This document shows positions 21,857-31,442 of a stretch of DNA of 39,408 nucleotides, piece after piece. Numbering within the stretch: position 1 is the first letter of the stretch; each line of letters starts with the position of its first letter. The notes below the pieces were generated by a model, which was not told where the DNA came from, made no database searches, and worked only from the letters and a program-made list of their open reading frames with translations. Source of the DNA: a virus. A program made the translations under genes and the position numbers. The stretch is from the IMG/VR virus record IMGVR_UViG_3300030399_000045, positions 1 through 39,408 of that record. One strand, written 5' to 3'.

Positions 21857-24037
21857 TTGGAGGCCATCATCGGACTATATTTGCCCCCTTGGAATAATGA
21901 CATCGAGCCGTCTCAAGCCAGCGTAAGGCAATGGCTGGATAATCTTTATTCAAAGATGCAGCCGATCGAACAGTCCCGGTGGAATCAAAGTAATATTGAT
22001 ACACTTTTTTATGCCGGTTGCCAGACATTCGTGAATAAATACTTTAATTTCAGCCCACAATCCTATCAACAATACTACTTTAATCTCATTCAGCAACCTG
22101 TCAATATGATTACAGGTTATCAGCGCCAGCACAGGAAATCTATCAACTATGTGCCATGTGATGGAGCTGATCCCAACACTACAGATCAATACACAAGACT
22201 AATGACCCATGTATGGAATAGTGGATCAAACCATGAGCAATATAGCAAGGCGTGCGAGTTAGCGGCTGTAGCTGGTCTGTGCCTAGCCCAGCCCTATCTA
22301 GACTATACTGTAGACGATAATGCACAGGGATCGCTAAAAATCAAGGTGTGGGAATACAATAGTTTTATCGTTGACCCATATGCCAGGGACCCCGGGTTTT
22401 CTGATGCCCAGTTCGTGTGGTGTCAGGAGTATATCAGCAAGAGGGAAGCCGAGTCGCGTTTCCCGGATAAGATACAAAATATATTGCCCATGTCAGGTTC
22501 TCCTCAGAGATATGGAAATTTTTATTTTCTTCCTGAAAATTATAACATGAGTCGTAATGACTTACTTGTGCTCTCATACGTATGGTACAAGTGGAAAACA
22601 AAGAAGAAACGACTTTACAGTGCCAAGAACAATCAGTTTTACGATTTTGCAGGCGGTGAAGAGCAACTGGATATGATTTTATATCATATTAAAGATATGG
22701 AAGTAGTCACTGTAGAAACGCCTTGCTGGAAACTTGCAACGGTATTAAATGATCAATTGATGTATCAGGGAGAAAACCCAATTGGTGATATTGGCATGCC
22801 TTTTGTACCAATATATTGGAATTATGACCCTCACATAAATTACTATGACTTGCGTGTAAGATCGCTTGTGCGAACTATGCGCGACCCGCAATTTTTGTTT
22901 AATTATAAGGTAATACAAAATAATGATATCGCAGCAGCTACAATTAACGCAGGATGGAAGCGTAAAATTGGAGCCGTAGCCAATGAGGATAATCTCAAGA
23001 AATCCGGTCAGGGATGGGATGTGATTATCAATGATGGTTATGAGATGACCGATGTAGAGAAGATAATCCCTTCTGCAGTACCTGAAAGTGATTTGGCTTT
23101 AGCCCAACAAATGGCAGATCTGATTTATAATACATCAGGTATCAACCTGGAAAACTGGTCAGGACAGCAGGATAAGCAGGTTTCCAGCCTCACAGTATTG
23201 CTTAAGCAAGCTGCCAATCTGATGGTATTCCAGAAGTACTTTGATCAATGGGATTATTCTTTAAAGTTAATTGGTGAAAAGATGCTCCAGATCGTACTCA
23301 ACAACTGGAACGCGGAGAAAGTGGGGATGATGATAGGTGAAGAACCAAGTCCGCACTTCTTTAGTAGAATCTTCGCCAAATATCAGGTAGTTGTTGAAGA
23401 AGGGCTGCTTACACCAACACAGAAGAACTTCCAGGCTCAGCAAATGCTTGAGATTAACGAACGCTTTGGTCGTGAAGTATTGCCAGCCAGCATGATCATA
23501 AAAGATATGAATATCCAAGGCAAAACCGAGATCATGGAATACTTGCAGCAGCAAGAACAACAGCAGGCAGCTATTGCGGAAGAAGCACAAGGCTTTGCTC
23601 ATGCTCTTGAAGCGGCCAAGTTGAAAGAATTGTATAGTAAGGCTGTTGCTAATATCGCAAGAGCAAGAGAAGATCACTCAAGATCTGAATCTAACCTCGG
23701 ATTGTATGAAGAGCGTCTAAGTATGATAGAACGCAATCGCGCTCTTTCTCTCAAAGAAAAACAGGCAGCTTTAACCTCATTACTTGAAAGCATCCAGAAA
23801 TTTGGTGAAATTGAAACGATGTATGCTGAAAACAAATTGAATATCGACGAAAGCAATATACGAAGCGAAGAAGAACTGGAAAAACAGGATGTCGAAAGAC
23901 GTACACAAGCTAATAAATTCTTTGAAGAGATAATGCAGAATGCGCCTGATATGGGTGGTCAGCAACAACAACAGCCGATGCAACAACCACAGCAGCAACA
24001 ACAAAATCCTGCACAAAATATGAGTGGGATGTTATAA
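21857..24037 (+). CDS. Portal protein
   Basis: 726 aa, lying between terL and scaffold/capsid, with N-terminal ...RWNQSNIDTLFYAGCQ... and a Gln-rich C-terminal tail. The start is uncertain: TTG at 21857, or a non-canonical codon after GGAGG. The first ATG is at 21956. Confidence 0.7.
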   Translation: MEAIIGLYLPPWNNDIEPSQASVRQWLDNLYSKMQPIEQSRWNQSNIDTLFYAGCQTFVNKYFNFSPQSYQQYYFNLIQQPVNMITGYQRQHRKSINYVPCDGADPNTTDQYTRLMTHVWNSGSNHEQYSKACELAAVAGLCLAQPYLDYTVDDNAQGSLKIKVWEYNSFIVDPYARDPGFSDAQFVWCQEYISKREAESRFPDKIQNILPMSGSPQRYGNFYFLPENYNMSRNDLLVLSYVWYKWKTKKKRLYSAKNNQFYDFAGGEEQLDMILYHIKDMEVVTVETPCWKLATVLNDQLMYQGENPIGDIGMPFVPIYWNYDPHINYYDLRVRSLVRTMRDPQFLFNYKVIQNNDIAAATINAGWKRKIGAVANEDNLKKSGQGWDVIINDGYEMTDVEKIIPSAVPESDLALAQQMADLIYNTSGINLENWSGQQDKQVSSLTVLLKQAANLMVFQKYFDQWDYSLKLIGEKMLQIVLNNWNAEKVGMMIGEEPSPHFFSRIFAKYQVVVEEGLLTPTQKNFQAQQMLEINERFGREVLPASMIIKDMNIQGKTEIMEYLQQQEQQQAAIAEEAQGFAHALEAAKLKELYSKAVANIARAREDHSRSESNLGLYEERLSMIERNRALSLKEKQAALTSLLESIQKFGEIETMYAENKLNIDESNIRSEEELEKQDVERRTQANKFFEEIMQNAPDMGGQQQQQPMQQPQQQQQNPAQNMSGML

Positions 24038-25891: not shown

Positions 25892-26542
25892 ATGACAGAA
25901 ACAGTAGTACAAAGTCAAGTTGAACAAAAGCCACAAGACAAAGAAATGAATTTTCGTGCCCTGGAAAATAAATACCAGCGCGCACTGGAACAGGAAAGAG
26001 CTGCAAGAATGGATGCAGAAAGACAATTGCAGGAAAGCAGACGAGCACCTCAACAAGACGAAGATGAAGATACCAGCGAACCTTACGTAGATCATAAGAA
26101 ATTAAATAAAAGGCTGAATCAGTTCGGAGAGCAATCCAAACAGCAGACTCAACAAGAAATCCAGAAAGCTGTCAATCATGCCATAGCGAATGAACGGAAA
26201 GAAACATGGCTTAAACAAAACTCTGATTTTTACGATGTTCTTCAGCATGCCGAGAAATTCGCACAGAAAGACCCTGAATTAGCTGAAACTATCCTACAAA
26301 TGCCAGAAGGCTTTGAAAGGCAGAAATTAGTCTACAAGACGATTAAATCAATGGGATTGCACCAGCCAGAACAAAAGCAAGCATCCATTCAAGAAAAAGT
26401 GGATGCAAACAGACGCAGTCCCTATTATCAACCCACTGGTGTGGGAAGTGCGCCCTATGGAAATACTGGTGACTTCAGCCCCGCAGGTCAGAAAAATGCT
26501 TATGCTAAAATGCAAGATCTTAAAAATAGGTTAAGAATATGA
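25892..26542 (+). CDS. Scaffolding protein candidate
   Basis: 216 aa, rich in Q, E, K and R and helical. It lies between portal and capsid, with RBS GAGGAAAGGA. Confidence 0.5.
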   Translation: MTETVVQSQVEQKPQDKEMNFRALENKYQRALEQERAARMDAERQLQESRRAPQQDEDEDTSEPYVDHKKLNKRLNQFGEQSKQQTQQEIQKAVNHAIANERKETWLKQNSDFYDVLQHAEKFAQKDPELAETILQMPEGFERQKLVYKTIKSMGLHQPEQKQASIQEKVDANRRSPYYQPTGVGSAPYGNTGDFSPAGQKNAYAKMQDLKNRLRI

Positions 26543-26694
26543 AAAAAGATATGAAACAGAAAAAAATCAAAAAAGTTATGGGCGAATTTGGAGAAGGTAA
26601 ATTGCATTCTGGATCTAAAAAAGGTCCAGTTGTGAAAGATAAAGCGCAAGCTCTAGCTATAGGATATAGCGAAGCGAAGAAAGGTAAAAAATAG
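26539..26694 (+). CDS. Small basic protein (KVM.EF.EGKL.SGS...QALAIGYSEAKK; I believe DUF6496-like)
   Basis: Not in the ORF track. 51 aa with an ATGA overlap. Confidence 0.45.
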   Translation: MKKDMKQKKIKKVMGEFGEGKLHSGSKKGPVVKDKAQALAIGYSEAKKGKK

Positions 26695-26712: not shown

Positions 26713-26868
26713 ATGAAAAATAATCCCATACAGGGAATCGCAATTGCTATTGGATTATCAGACTATTTAGCTGTTCCCATGAGGCAGGCTGAGGATTTGA
26801 TTTTAAGAGATTACATCTTCAGCACTGCATCCGAAGCAGGAATGAGCAAAAAAAAGAAGAAGATATGA
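26713..26868 (+). CDS. Mini-ORF carrying an uninterrupted, diverged copy of a capsid-gene segment
   Basis: SDYLAVPMRQAEDLILRDYIFSTA here compares with capsid exon 3/4 SDRLAVAMRQAED|LILRDYIVSAA. Confidence 0.5.
   Translation: MKNNPIQGIAIAIGLSDYLAVPMRQAEDLILRDYIFSTASEAGMSKKKKKI
26833..26862. repeat. 30-bp direct repeat, copy 1
   Basis: GAAGCAGGAATGAGCAAAAAAAAGAAGAAG compared with 26990-27019; the first 29 of 30 nt contain a single mismatch. Confidence 0.85.
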
Positions 26869-27002
26869 AAATAGAAGACATAAGAGATATACAAATCAAA
26901 ATTCGTGAAATGTATCCGCCTTCAGAATTATCACCTGAAATTTTGCAACAGATTATTTTTATATTGTTGGAATATCAAAACAAGTATCAGAAGCAAGAAT
27001 GA
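26865..27002 (+). CDS. Hypothetical 45-aa protein flanked by the 30-bp repeats
   Basis: Not in the ORF track. It has an ATGA overlap. Confidence 0.35.
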   Translation: MKIEDIRDIQIKIREMYPPSELSPEILQQIIFILLEYQNKYQKQE

Positions 27003-27019
27003 GCAAAAAAAAGAAGAAA
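26990..27019. repeat. 30-bp direct repeat, copy 2
   Basis: GAAGCAAGAATGAGCAAAAAAAAGAAGAAA. Confidence 0.85.
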
Positions 27020-27268: not shown

Positions 27269-27488
27269 AATAATGGAAGCTATTTGCTCAGAATGTAAAA
27301 AAATCTATGAAGAAAGAAAAGAAGAAATTTTTTGTTTGATAGGTGAAGTAGATATGATTTGTTATGAATGTGCAAAAAAATCTAATAATATAGAAAATGA
27401 TATTATGTATCTGTATTGTGGAACATGTGAAAAATACTTTCATATTTTTTATGATAAAGATCACATAGAACGATGCGTTAAGGAATAA
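27249..27488 (+). CDS. Cys-rich protein
   Basis: 79 aa with CSEC..CYEC..CGTC. The start is uncertain; 27273 is an alternative. Confidence 0.45.
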   Translation: MNYKVAKIMEAICSECKKIYEERKEEIFCLIGEVDMICYECAKKSNNIENDIMYLYCGTCEKYFHIFYDKDHIERCVKE

Positions 27489-27489
27489 A

Positions 27490-27517
27490 TTGACTAAAAT
27501 TAACTTTATGCTATATT
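27490..27517 (+). promoter_or_regulatory. Promoter TTGACT-N16-TATATT upstream of the capsid gene
   Basis: The hexamers and spacing were read directly. About 150 nt of structured leader follows. Confidence 0.6.
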
Positions 27518-27675
27518 GAAATTTCGCGTGCAGCGTTAAGCATATCGCGTAAGAAGCATCGCACCCTTCACAAGCGTTAGAGGTCTCGCATCCTCAAAGA
27601 TATGATCGAGAACTGACGTAATCAGGCTCGTCTACCGATCATCATATCACACGAATCTCTCAACCCAAGGTTGAC

Positions 27676-30259
27676 ATGATTACGACAACCGGGTCACTTG
27701 GTCCGATGATATTGCAGTCGCTCGCGCCTGCTATGTTATACGTTCCAACCCCCATGATGAACTATATCACAGTCTGCGACAAGGTCAGTATGCCAGCTAA
27801 TGGCGGCACGACTTGCAGATTTATGAGGCCAAGAGCCTTACAGCCCCCAACGATTCAGTTGGGTAATTCTGGGATCGATAAACGGTGTGTCGATTTAAAA
27901 CCTTTTCTGATTGACTCGGAAGCCCCTCATACGGGTAACGAGGCGCAAGCTGAGCAATATGCTCTTGCAGCGTGAACGACTGAGCGAAAGGGACGCGAAA
28001 GCGTATGCAACAGTCTGATCTTGGACTATATATAAAATCCAAGAGGGAGATTCGAAGAAGTTTCCCCGCCTTGAGCTGCAAGGGGTCAAAAAAGTAACAG
28101 GGTGCCACCGGCACAAGTACCGCAAAGAGATATAATCGATTGGCGCAAATGGCGTTTTTTGGAACTGGGTGTATAATTAACGAACAAGTTATACTTCAAG
28201 ACCAAGAGGGTATTTTACTTGCAGCATAATGTTGGCGGGTCTATAATATAACCAAACCAAGAGGTTATATGAAAGATCCGGAAGAAAAGGAAATTATGGC
28301 TTATATTGCAGGACTCATCGATGGTGATGGTCATATAGGAATAAGAATTGGACCAAGAGGAAAATTATCACCTTTGATCCAGTTTCACAACTCTGTAAAA
28401 CAGGTTTCTGTTTATTTGAATAATTTATTCGGAGGAACAGTTGCCTATGACAAGCCAAAAAAAGAAAATGACCGTACTATATGGAAGTGGATGCTTCAAG
28501 GTTATGATGGATGCCAAAACTTTTTAAATAAAGTTAAAGAATTTTTAATTTTGAAGAAAGATTCTGCCAATCTCATGATAGAATTCTTATCCAATCCCCA
28601 TGATACTAAAGATTATTATCAAATATCAAAAGATTTAAATTTAAATAGAAAAATTGGATCTTACAATATTGATAATATTAATAGAAAAACTAGTGAGTGC
28701 CCCTATTTCTGGGCTTATTTAGCTGGTATTATGGACACAGACGGATCTTTTTCAATTGAAAGACAAGTGCGTAAAGCCGGTCAAGATAGAATGAAAAATG
28801 ATTTGGTTAAATTTCGACCAAAGATAATCTTGACTATGGTTAGCGAGAGGTCTATTCAATATATCCTTTCCAATTGTGAATATGGAGGATTATCGATCGT
28901 GAAAGCTAAAACAGCTTTAAGAGGATCGGCTTTTAGATTCTCTATTCAATCAAGATCAGATTCCATTGAATTTTTGAAAAGATGTATTCCTTTTCTTCAA
29001 ATAAAAGCAGTTCAAGCGGTAAAAATTTTGAATTTCTGTAGAAATTATAATCCCACAAATGGATTAGCAAGAATTCCAGAATCTGAAAAAGAATATCGCG
29101 AGAAATGTTATAAAGAAATAGTAATGCTGAACAACACGCCCTCTTAGCTATGACGTAATTGGTGTTAGCTTGGGTCAGTGATAGACTGGCTGTGGCGATG
29201 CGTCAAGCCGAGGATAGAGATTATGTCCTCGATAAACCTACTCTGATTGACTTGGAAGCCTAAGGGAAACTATGGCGACAGGGCGGAAGGCGTAAGCCGC
29301 CGTGAGAGACTGAGTGAGTGGGACCGAAAGGTATGCGACAGTCCGAACCAGGCAACGAAAGGCTTGGAGATAGGCAGAAATGACCTATCCACGTCAACAG
29401 ACGGGGTAACAGGTTGTTAATCCTTCGTGACTACATCGTCAGCGCAGCAACAGATATCAACTGCGGTGGTGGTATAAATGGTGACAACCCAACGAATCTT
29501 GCATTGTCAGATTGCAGTTTGGTTGCTACCACTTTGGACACAAATAACGCTTACAAGTTCATGACCGGTATTGAAGGCATGGATCGTTTTGGCACAGGCC
29601 CAATACGTAATTGTTATTTTATGCTATCGTCAACTGAATTACAGAGTGATTTTGATAACTTGGTTGGTCAAGGAGTGCTCAACAACTGGAATTATCCTAC
29701 TAATACCAGTGCGTTGCCCAGCGAATGGGGCTCCGTATTCAATTTAAGAATACTAACCAGCTCTGAAGCACCTGTAGCTAGACAAGCCAGTCCTATGAAT
29801 CAGGATATTTATTATAATACTGTTCTTGGCAAGCAAGCGATCACGCATATAAATCAGGATGGGTTAATGATGGCCCATGTAAAATCTTTGGTAATTGACT
29901 TGGAACTCCTCGCAGCATAGTCTGACGGACAACAAGGGGCAAGTGATAGAAAAAATGATAGTTTTTTTTTCCGAACGGCCTGAACGACTAAACCCAGAGA
30001 CGCCGAAAGGCGATACGATAGTCTGAACTCTATGGAAACATAGAGAGAGCGATCCGAAGAGGTTGCTCCGCCTGGCAACAGGTCACAAAAGTAACAGAAT
30101 GATTCCATGAACCTGATTTATCGTGATCCATATTATTCTGGCATGTTGGCACAGAATGCCACTCTAGCGGTGAAGTTTGCGCAAGCGCAAGCATTAACGC
30201 AGGATACAGCGATCCGAAACCTACTCTGCACGCGTTTATCTAACGCTGTAGGACCATAA
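27676..30259 (+). CDS. Major capsid protein (HK97-fold type), mosaic gene
   Basis: Proposed exons are 27676..27879, 28101..~28217, ~29162..29215, 29417..29864 and 30102..30259. The conceptual product is 326 aa. It shows the capsid-like pattern ...GGTTCRFMRPRAL...LGNSG...AQMAFFG...NEQVILQDQ...SDRLAVAMRQAEDLILRDYI...DPYYSG...LAVKF... Confidence 0.75.
27880..28100 (+). mobile_element. Group I-type intron A (ORF-less, about 221 nt)
   Basis: P1 pairs exon AUCGAU (27874-79) with GUCGAU (27889-94), with U.G at the splice site. P7 is GACUG (27978-82) with CAGUC (28011-15). P8 is ACGC-GAAA-GCGU. The 3' end is GUAACAGGGUG. The frame requires the 3' splice site after G28100, uncertain by about 4 nt. 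Confidence 0.7.
28219..28247 (+). promoter_or_regulatory. Promoter TTGCAG-N17-TATAAT inside the capsid gene, upstream of the endonuclease ORF
   Basis: The hexamers and 17-nt spacer were read directly. Confidence 0.5.
28246..28270 (+). promoter_or_regulatory. Hairpin occluding the endonuclease SD and start codon
   Basis: ATATAACC (28246-53) pairs with GGTTATAT (28263-70), with a 9-nt loop. The 5' arm overlaps the -10 element, so it would be absent from transcripts initiated at the internal promoter. Confidence 0.5.
28269..29147 (+). CDS. LAGLIDADG homing endonuclease (double-motif)
   Basis: 292 aa with two motifs, YIAGLIDGDGHIG and YLAGIMDTDGSFS. RBS is AAGAGG. Confidence 0.9.
   Translation: MKDPEEKEIMAYIAGLIDGDGHIGIRIGPRGKLSPLIQFHNSVKQVSVYLNNLFGGTVAYDKPKKENDRTIWKWMLQGYDGCQNFLNKVKEFLILKKDSANLMIEFLSNPHDTKDYYQISKDLNLNRKIGSYNIDNINRKTSECPYFWAYLAGIMDTDGSFSIERQVRKAGQDRMKNDLVKFRPKIILTMVSERSIQYILSNCEYGGLSIVKAKTALRGSAFRFSIQSRSDSIEFLKRCIPFLQIKAVQAVKILNFCRNYNPTNGLARIPESEKEYREKCYKEIVMLNNTPS
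29216..29416 (+). mobile_element. Group I-type intron B (ORF-less, 201 nt)
   Basis: P1 pairs exon GAGGAU (29210-15) with GUCCUC (29225-30). P7 is GACUG (29308-12) with CAGUC (29339-43). P8 is ACC-GAAA-GGU. The 3' end is GUAACAGGUUG. Ligation gives QAED|LILRDY, identical to the uninterrupted copy at 26713. Confidence 0.75.
29865..30101 (+). mobile_element. Group I-type intron C (ORF-less, 237 nt)
   Basis: P1 pairs exon AUGGGU (29859-64) with GCCCAU (29873-78). P7 is GACUA (29986-90) with UAGUC (30019-23), which covaries relative to A and B. P8 is CGCC-GAAA-GGCG. The 3' end is GUAACAGAAUG. Ligation is in frame (..NQDG-Y-SMNLIY..). Confidence 0.75.
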
Positions 30260-30269
30260 GGAGGTTATC

Positions 30270-31442
30270 GTGGCTGAATATTCAAGACTGGCAAGTGGAC
30301 AGGTGGTATCAACAGGCGGTCAGACTGCGGTTGTATTACCATTTATCCCTAATTTCATTGAGATTTATAACCAGACAAGAGCTATTGCAGCTTCAGGGGT
30401 TACAAATGCATCATGGATGACTGATATGGGTCAGGGAAGTGCTTTCCGTAGTTTGTATGGTACAGGAAATCAATTCATTGGTCCAACATCAGCTCTAACA
30501 ACAAGTGGATTAACTGCAGGTACTGGTTTTACAACCATTCAAGCAGGATTGTCCCTTCAATATGGACCATCTTATTATCATGCGGTTGTTTCAACAGCTG
30601 ATTTTTCGATTGCTCAATCTGGTGCTGGTGGTACTGGTCCTGCAACTACTATTACTACGGTAACAGCGCATGGACTAACTAATGGTAATTGGATTATTTT
30701 CCAGAATCTGGCACAAACCGCTACAACGGGTATGAATCAGATTGCAGGTATTCCTTTTATGGTAAGTGGAGTCACAGCGACCACATTTACCATTACCTGG
30801 GATACTTCTGGATCTAATTACACAGCGTTTAATACAGCAACATCTACAGGTAATATCGGATCGTTTAAAAAGATCCTATATCCTGTCTTGTATGCACCTG
30901 GAGTATCGTTTATTTCCTTACTGACTCTTGCAAATGTGACAACTGTAACAACTACAGCACCTCACAATTTCCAGGTAGGTCAGGAAATAGCCTTCAGAAT
31001 ACCTCAACCGTGGGGACCTACTCAGTTGAATCCGTTACCAAACGTAGTCATTCCGGGTAGTCCGATGTATGGATATGTGATTTCTGTAACAAATAGCACA
31101 ACCTTTGTGTGTAACATTAACTCTACGGGTTTCACCGCGTTTAATGTTAACCAACCGTTTGCTAACGTTCCAGGGTTACAGTTCCCTCAAGTGGTTGCTG
31201 TAGGTGATGTGAATACGGGCGGATTGCCAATTTCGGCTGGTTCTCAATTGTATCCATCTCCACAGGTGTTTAATGGATTTACTGCTAGTACTTCAACTGG
31301 TGTGAATACTATTAATGGTCCTGCTATTCAGGGGGCTTATATTAATGCAACATTCCAAGGATTTATAATCGGAAGCGGTATCTCTGGTACTGTTGGAGAT
31401 GTAATTTATTGGCGTTCGTATTTACACGATTTGAATACATAA
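30270..31442 (+). CDS. Abundant structural protein candidate (decoration/fibre-like, beta-rich)
   Basis: GTG start 6 nt after AAGGAGG, 390 aa. It contains two copies of a T-x-T-T-x-x-H-x-(F/L)-x-x-G module. It is co-transcribed with the capsid gene and followed by a strong terminator. Confidence 0.55.
   Translation: MAEYSRLASGQVVSTGGQTAVVLPFIPNFIEIYNQTRAIAASGVTNASWMTDMGQGSAFRSLYGTGNQFIGPTSALTTSGLTAGTGFTTIQAGLSLQYGPSYYHAVVSTADFSIAQSGAGGTGPATTITTVTAHGLTNGNWIIFQNLAQTATTGMNQIAGIPFMVSGVTATTFTITWDTSGSNYTAFNTATSTGNIGSFKKILYPVLYAPGVSFISLLTLANVTTVTTTAPHNFQVGQEIAFRIPQPWGPTQLNPLPNVVIPGSPMYGYVISVTNSTTFVCNINSTGFTAFNVNQPFANVPGLQFPQVVAVGDVNTGGLPISAGSQLYPSPQVFNGFTASTSTGVNTINGPAIQGAYINATFQGFIIGSGISGTVGDVIYWRSYLHDLNT

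Follow-up and report, generated by a model that had tools for sequence, protein, structure and literature searches.

Microhomology-mediated template switching of the MMBIR/FoSTeS type leaves templated insertions, which have been described mainly in cellular genomes. Partial duplications of host genes are known to adjoin homing-endonuclease genes, with examples in fungal mitochondria and in the 'genes in pieces' of T4-type phages (covered in part by PMC2988022). In phages, the endonucleases of introns act on co-infecting relatives and mark the boundaries of genetic exchange (PMC11620839; PMC10448857).

The locus described here belongs to a phage genome of ~39 kb, available as the record IMGVR_UViG_3300030399_000045 and referred to below as the window, meaning the whole stretch of 39,408 nucleotides that was analysed. 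Upstream of a major capsid gene with several interruptions lies a mini-ORF of 51 codons, the middle of which matches the capsid protein and the ends of which match the small protein family DUF6496 (Table 1). The mini-ORF is probably a chimeric orphan frame left as a recombination scar, in which a snippet of a capsid gene sits in a DUF6496 remnant.

Table 1. Features of the window, with positions counted from its first nucleotide.
Feature	Position	Strand	Remarks
P22-type portal gene	21857-24037		Pfam E 2e-60
Scaffold-like coiled-coil gene	25892-26542
Intact DUF6496 gene	26539-26694	+	51 aa; Pfam PF20106, E 7.9e-7, above gathering score
Mini-ORF	26713-26868	+	51 aa + stop; product P0001
Mini-ORF left flank	26719-26760	+	NNPIQGIAIAIGLS; putative copy of the conserved DUF6496 C-terminal motif
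Capsid-derived patch	26758-26835	+	SDYLAVPMRQAEDLILRDYIFSTASE; 26 codons, homologous to capsid residues 110-135
GAGGAT	26791-26796	+	hexamer pairing with GTCCTC of intron B in the capsid gene; virtual intron-B site after 26796
33-nt direct repeat, copy 1	26829-26861	+	encodes mini-ORF tail SEAGMSKKKKK, DUF6496-tail-like
orf45	26865-27002	+	between the two 33-nt repeat copies
33-nt direct repeat, copy 2	26986-27018, on to stop (27022)	+	(V)SEARMSKKKKK and stop; putative second DUF6496 3' remnant
Interrupted major capsid gene	27676-30259
Capsid exon 1	27676-27879	+
Intron A	27880-28104	+
Capsid exon 2	28105-28211	+
LAGLIDADG endonuclease cassette	28212-29161	+	between capsid codons EG/VL; boundaries from intron-less homologues
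LAGLIDADG ORF	28269-29147	+	Pfam LAGLIDADG_1, LAGLIDADG_3
Capsid exon 3	29162-29215	+
Exon 3 part homologous to patch	29174-29215	+	VSDRLAVAMRQAED
Intron B	29216-29416	+	P1: GAGGAT/GTCCTC; 3' end GTAACAGGTTG resembles introns A and C
Capsid exon 4	29417-29864	+
Exon 4 start homologous to patch	29417-29455	+	LILRDYIVSAATD
Intron C	29865-30101	+
Capsid exon 5	30102-30259	+

The mini-ORF and its DUF6496 flanks

The distance between the scaffold and capsid genes is 1134 nt in the window and anything between 165 and 4587 nt among 71 relatives, and homologues of DUF6496 and of orf81 are present or absent there depending on the relative. DUF6496 genes were found in seven related phages, in some of them within this slot and in others ~3-3.3 kb downstream of the capsid start. 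The slot between scaffold and capsid is thus a hypervariable cargo slot. It also holds orf45, to which searches of Pfam, PHROGs, and 80 related loci returned no homologue.

Direct rereading of the mini-ORF returned the sequence quoted in an earlier reading made from the letters alone (the sequence-only reading); it begins MKNNPIQGIAIAIGLS and terminates SEAGMSKKKKKI. AGGA stands 5 nt ahead of its ATG, its TGA overlaps the ATG of orf45 (ATGA), and its frame is that of the intact upstream DUF6496 gene, with a TAG stop and six codons between the two. Since it has a usable ribosome-binding site and a place in the late operon, the mini-ORF is probably translated.

By its alignments, the mini-ORF is evidently a chimera in three parts, in which flanks left from a DUF6496 gene surround a foreign capsid snippet. 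Counterparts of the left flank occur in the DUF6496 genes of three relatives (L055, NKKQGIAIALSE; L013, KQAIAIGLSE; L010, TNPKQGIAIALSE), with which the similarity extends to the codon level, and its DNA, CAGGGAATCGCAATTGCT, matches CAAGGAATCGCTATTGCT of L055 at 16/18 nt. DUF6496 homologues in the matching slot are carried by L040, L071, and L013, and in relatives the C-termini of these proteins read ...NPKQGIAIALSEARKKGMKVGKK or ...KQAIAIGLSEARKAGEKVSKKKGKK. The sequence-only reading had left the left end of the capsid homology ambiguous, as AIAIGLS also resembles the small protein encoded just upstream; that end can now be assigned to DUF6496, and the right end is likewise DUF6496-derived, both on short motifs (10-14 aa) with modest scores.

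The tail of the mini-ORF is encoded by the first of two direct repeats of 33 nt (family D4), which flank orf45, are 94% identical, and are spaced 157 nt apart. The tail encoded by the second copy is read in a frame different from that of orf45. Since the two copies thus fall in different frames of annotated ORFs, the repeat is a duplication of the DUF6496 tail at the DNA level. A local DUF6496 HMM built from eight DUF6496 proteins matched the mini-ORF with E 9.3e-5 at Z=1 (a single target), the tail appearing as a second, weak domain. When this HMM was run on the 1159 six-frame stop-to-stop segments of the window, the true gene ranked first, the mini-ORF second, and a segment at 26939-27019 third, which contains the second repeat copy and ends in ...VSEARMSKKKKK directly before a stop. 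The region therefore comprises an intact DUF6496 gene as well as two remnants of a 3' end, and it is the first remnant that carries the capsid patch.

Joining position 26760 to 26990 in silico, with 26761-26989 excised, yields the peptide ...QGIAIAIGLSEARMSKKKKK, for which DUF6496 is the sole Pfam match among 24,736 families (E 0.0057, profile positions 39-52). Its score of 17.4 bits lies below the DUF6496 gathering score of 24 (58-position profile), as is expected for a fragment; the uncut mini-ORF has no Pfam match. The C-terminal motif of the family, QxIAIALSEAR followed by a basic tail, is present in the mini-ORF in the form QGIAIAIGLS...SEAGMSKKKKK, and the N-terminal motif GKLHSGSKKGP is absent both from the mini-ORF and from the 18 nt that follow the stop of the upstream gene. 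Judged by a score below threshold and by the C-terminal motif only, the mini-ORF is not a member of DUF6496.

The capsid-derived patch and its source

The part of the mini-ORF that aligns with the capsid is aa 15/16-41, corresponding to capsid residues 109/110-135, with L15 at 26755 possibly included. Aligned by BLASTP with the spliced capsid of the same phage, the mini-ORF shows 22/35 identities without gaps (pairwise E 5e-12), so that the similarity seen in the letters is statistically significant, and the match is continuous across the intron-B site; the core of the patch, MRQAEDLILRDYI, matches the phage's own capsid perfectly. With the related intron-less capsid P0006 as a tblastn query against the whole window, 26755-26835 was matched at 78% over 27 aa (E 2.9e-7), the sole capsid-like match outside the capsid gene in six frames. 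Amino acids 15-41 of the mini-ORF also match the capsid in all 80 related phage loci, at 70-81% identity over 27 aa.

It had been suggested that a weaker homology might extend leftward across the endonuclease insertion point, which the alignments contradict. Capsid homologues read ...QDQEG/VLAWVSERL... at this point, with no 'IL'; the 'IL' before the endonuclease is part of the insertion. When the mini-ORF is placed in the correct capsid register, a hydrophobic resemblance only is left to the left of Ser16, and the reconstituted endonuclease site (CAAGAGGGT/GTGTTAGCTTGG) is matched at 5/21 nt, a random level. The mini-ORF therefore aligns with the capsid over aa 15-41 only and not over the full length of ~322 aa, and it does not keep the residues that are invariant in this segment of the family. 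On these alignments, it is a capsid fragment and not a major capsid protein of the N4-gp56 family or HK97 fold. With P0006 and 27 close homologues as input, AlphaFold modelled the capsid with a helix at residues 102-135, the putative 'spine helix' of the sequence-only reading, but at no usable confidence (mean pLDDT 32), and no PDB relative of the capsid was found by sequence.

At the DNA level, the patch shares 50/81 nt and 9/27 third positions with the phage's own capsid gene, and a recount around the exon 3/4 junction again gave 18/27 nt; these values bear out the statement that most third positions differ and that the patch is not a recent self-duplication. Between any two capsid alleles, an average of 12/27 third positions agree here, and the patch shares 5-16/27 with the individual alleles, so that its divergence from the capsid of its own genome equals the level found between any two alleles. 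Since third positions are saturated throughout the capsid family, a conserved protein with scrambled third positions shows that the source was another allele, and does not show later selection. By this comparison, the patch is evidently foreign and comes from another allele of the same capsid family. One allele (L025/L091) contains 30 consecutive nt identical to the middle of the patch, and its sequence diverges on both flanks. As search patterns, neither the left nor the right third of the patch gave a match, and the middle third found L025/L091 only; neither an un-inserted ancestor nor a close source allele (at least 90% nt identity) was found. The GC and GC3 contents of the patch lie within the range of capsid alleles, so base composition is silent on residence time.

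Four substitutions in the patch (V109L, R112Y, A116P, and A132T) affect residues that vary hardly or not at all among 27 capsids, which indicates that the patch has been released from capsid-type constraint. The product of the mini-ORF was found only on contigs of essentially one phage: of the eight loci that carry it, which come from several samples, seven match the window at 100% identity along stretches of up to 10 kb, and the eighth differs in the portal gene only. An exhaustive phmmer search of 1.84 billion (1.84e9) representative proteins returned the mini-ORF itself only, as did a word-indexed search of 5.8e9 proteins, which is weak alone since it did not list the capsids either. No second capsid-like copy exists in the 80 related loci, and no PHROG contains the mini-ORF. 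A degenerate DNA pattern for VPMRQAEDLI found nothing in viral or metagenome contigs, and one for the junction between DUF6496 and capsid found nothing in metagenome contigs. In L074, tblastn gave the mini-ORF a second, weak match (28% identity, E 0.03), which was treated as noise. As far as these searches reach, the mini-ORF appears to be a singleton of one phage genotype, with no sign of a conserved role.

Both borders of the patch coincide with Ser-Asp/Glu codons that are common to the two genes. At the point of interruption, DUF6496 genes read CTT TCA GAA/G (Leu-Ser-Glu; CTTTCAGAA/G), and capsid alleles read GTN TCN GAR (Val-Ser-Glu) to the left of the patch region and GCNTCNGAA to its right, with GCN TCN GAA (Ala-Ser-Glu) in many alleles. 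The joints of the mini-ORF are TTA TCA GAC on the left and GCA TCC GAA on the right. The Ser-Glu pair occurs once in DUF6496 (LSE) and twice in the capsid, 25 codons apart (VSE...ASE). Since the joints fall on this codon pair, microhomology can account for them, and since the two genes have these Ser-Glu/Asp codons in a common frame, the chimera can stay open throughout without selection.

The interrupted capsid gene

With the spliced capsid as query, over 1000 proteins of ~322 aa without interruptions were retrieved, and the matches listed have identities of 80-87%. Homologues lie on contigs of 36-42 kb and are named 'N4-gp56 family major capsid protein' in their sources; in PHROGs, the family is a 'major head protein'. 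The exon map was set by alignment of the spliced product with 12 intron-less homologues, and the join of exons 3 and 4 (AED/LILRDY) was confirmed by 13 intron-less homologues. Introns A, B, and C are 201-237 nt long, are similar to one another, and each end in GTAACAGnnTG. A U able to pair with G directly precedes each of them, within a P1 helix of 6 bp (ATCGAT/GTCGAT, GAGGAT/GTCCTC, and ATGGGT/GCCCAT, respectively). No Rfam group I intron family was found in the window at gathering scores, nor at E<=10 over 27400-30300, and the intron calls are based on exon colinearity with intron-less homologues, on the P1 pairings, and on mutual similarity. Roseobacter phage CRP-118 and Desulfovibrio phage 7757 contain unannotated DNA similar to stretches of ~100 nt in introns A and C. 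When the frame of exon 3 is continued into intron B, 29216-29251 translate to RDYVLDKPTLID, which echoes RDYIVSAA of exon 4; the GATTA of this segment can pair in a P10-type helix with TAATC, with which exon 4 opens, and this probably explains the echo.

Within its cassette, the LAGLIDADG ORF is preceded by 57 nt and followed by 14 nt, too little space for a ribozyme of the kind seen in introns A-C. Either the insertion is spliced by some unfamiliar route, or expression of the capsid gene takes place in pieces. The ribosome-binding site and start codon of the endonuclease ORF lie within an 18-nt inverted repeat (28236-28253/28263-28280). The first bases of the insertion resemble a degenerate copy of the downstream VLAWV codons. 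As a candidate promoter upstream of this ORF, TTGCAG-17-TATAAT was not called by a consensus scan.

Relative to three intron-less relatives, exon 2 has an insertion of 2 nt (TG, 28141-28142) directly after ATCGAT, which places PPAQVPQRDIID and AQMAFFGTGC... in different frames and is present in every contig of the window phage that covers these positions. A T_TTT_TTG heptamer (28155-28161) lies in the upstream frame 13 nt downstream of the TG; a -1 slip there would restore the capsid frame and would turn the invariant AQMAFF into WRKWRFL. Eight relatives (L076, L081, and L083-L088) have one insertion of ~210-250 nt near capsid codons 22-31, and since these positions differ from those of the window's four interruptions, the capsid genes of this group have been invaded repeatedly. 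About 25 nt before the capsid start, a 52-nt element (27598-27650, GATATGATCGAGAACTGACGTAATCAGGCTCGTCTACCGATCATCATATC) is 85-98% identical in 37 related phages, compared with only ~70% for coding sequences. The element folds as a hairpin, a few pairs of which are kept through two-sided changes, and may serve the capsid gene as a conserved leader or a regulatory RNA. A promoter-like TTGACT-16-TATATT stands at 27490-27517. With its three related small introns, endonuclease cassette, and frame break, the capsid gene looks more remarkable than the mini-ORF.

Origin of the chimera and comparison with known systems

The sequence-only reading listed a recombination relic of an intron-less capsid allele among the possible meanings of the mini-ORF. 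This idea is favoured, and it is refined here to ~78 nt of a foreign allele within a DUF6496 remnant. A DUF6496 copy in the hypervariable slot would have been truncated, its 3' half being cut off from the conserved N-terminal part, and ~78 nt from an intron-less capsid allele of a related phage would have been copied into its ...AIA(IG)LS/EAR... motif. From the junctions, we infer that the piece may have entered through microhomology-guided template switching or illegitimate recombination at Ser-Glu/Asp codons (TCNGAR), perhaps while a break was being repaired or DNA replicated, within a concatemer or a mixed infection. The duplication of the DUF6496 tail that gave the 33-nt repeat around orf45 would have come with this event or after it; this order of events, like the presumed neutrality of the product, is part of the reconstruction. 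Against a scar, it can be said that the mini-ORF is intact, has its AGGA upstream of the ATG, and is translationally coupled to orf45, and that the amino acids of the patch are far better kept than its third positions, which would also fit a selected peptide. However, the open frame and the amino-acid conservation are equally explained by in-frame microhomology together with a source that was divergent at synonymous sites.

A special case of the scar explanation, which would supply its cause, is that the patch is a by-product of homing. Here, a co-infecting relative would have had its intron-less capsid gene cut by the LAGLIDADG enzyme at EG/VLAWV, and a break in the DUF6496 remnant would have captured the slightly resected end, either directly or as a copied fragment. 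The source allele is indeed foreign and intron-less, and the homology starts at S110, 15 nt downstream of the endonuclease insertion site (G104/V105), where a random 78-nt piece of the 966-nt gene would start within 15 nt of the site ~3% of the time. This proximity is, however, a single post-hoc coincidence, the Ser-Glu microhomology alone also explains the left junction, and no other captured fragments were seen, and a homing origin is therefore regarded as unlikely. It is rated even lower that the mini-ORF is a young functional gene, a 51-aa mimic of the long capsid helix that putatively binds capsid subunits and modulates assembly or poisons the assembly of related co-infecting phages. The open frame, the ribosome-binding site, the coupling to the next ORF, the location between the scaffold and capsid genes, and the perfectly kept core are consistent with such a peptide, which must at least be tolerated as the phage occurs in several samples. 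On the other hand, protein searches gave no homologue and the 80 relatives no counterpart, the substitutions at invariant capsid positions include a proline midway in the presumed helix, the phage's own capsid has the same helix and so offers no obvious discrimination between self and non-self, and the open frame is explained without selection. There is perhaps a slight chance that the chimera shows a gene shortly after its birth, with a capsid helix patch on a basic tail whose product is made along with the scaffold and capsid proteins and interacts with capsid subunits, or, in a related version, that the patch is a physical footprint of endonuclease-driven conflict between co-infecting phages.

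The earlier proposal of a decoy or second target, cleaved by the LAGLIDADG enzyme or entered by reverse splicing of intron B through GAGGAU, has become very improbable. The hexamer is kept in the mini-ORF, as had been claimed, and the TTGATT that follows it could form P10-like pairs (with wobbles) with GATTAT of intron B. Yet GAGGAT is not special, since it is present in 17/80 related capsid alleles (21%), and being nearly dictated by Glu-Asp, this 6-nt match is the whole of the intron-B case; as a criterion for an intron-B site, the hexamer is uninformative even though it is present. It is also true that the segment is intron-less exactly where intron B sits, but so are all 80 of the related capsid genes. 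With the endonuclease site matched at 5/21 nt only, the mini-ORF does not appear to be a target of the LAGLIDADG endonuclease, and neither the intron nor a copy of the endonuclease occupies the site in any contig. As for the capsid similarity being a chance or low-complexity artefact, the small size of the mini-ORF and the repeats at its ends (AIAIAI, KKKKK) could suggest as much, but the E-values of the pairwise comparison (5e-12) and of the related capsid against the whole window (2.9e-7), the match of the same 27 residues to all 80 related capsids, and a matching core that is not of low complexity already refute this, and its probability is negligible.

In itself, the mini-ORF, taken as an ordinary scar, is of little importance. 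It is a clean and well-delimited case of how pieces of essential genes can be copied in frame at codon-level microhomologies and so create orphan ORFs of seeming meaning. It also advises caution, in that protein conservation combined with scrambled third positions is no proof of selection if the source was already divergent.

Among known systems, phage mosaicism by illegitimate recombination ('morons' and cargo slots) is alike in the accessory ORFs that come and go between late genes, in the short sequences shared at junctions, and in the truncated gene copies left behind; it differs in that here a ~78-nt in-frame piece of an essential structural gene was apparently moved, and not a whole cassette. 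Insertions of the MMBIR/FoSTeS type resemble the mini-ORF in the short copy of an ectopic template, the microhomology at both junctions, and the local duplication (the 33-nt repeat), whereas the donor of the patch was apparently the allele of another genome, and the mechanism is here read from sequence alone. The partial duplications linked to homing-endonuclease genes share with this locus an extra copy of the endonuclease-site region of the invaded gene in an endonuclease-carrying genome. However, those duplications abut the endonuclease and are of the same allele, whereas the patch is separated from it by 1.4 kb, on the upstream side, has a diverged allele as its source, and is fused to an unrelated remnant. 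Compared with DUF6496 (PF20106) itself, the flanks of the mini-ORF reproduce the C-terminal motif and basic tail of the family, and the mini-ORF differs from it in its missing N-terminal half, its score below threshold, and the capsid sequence that interrupts the motif.
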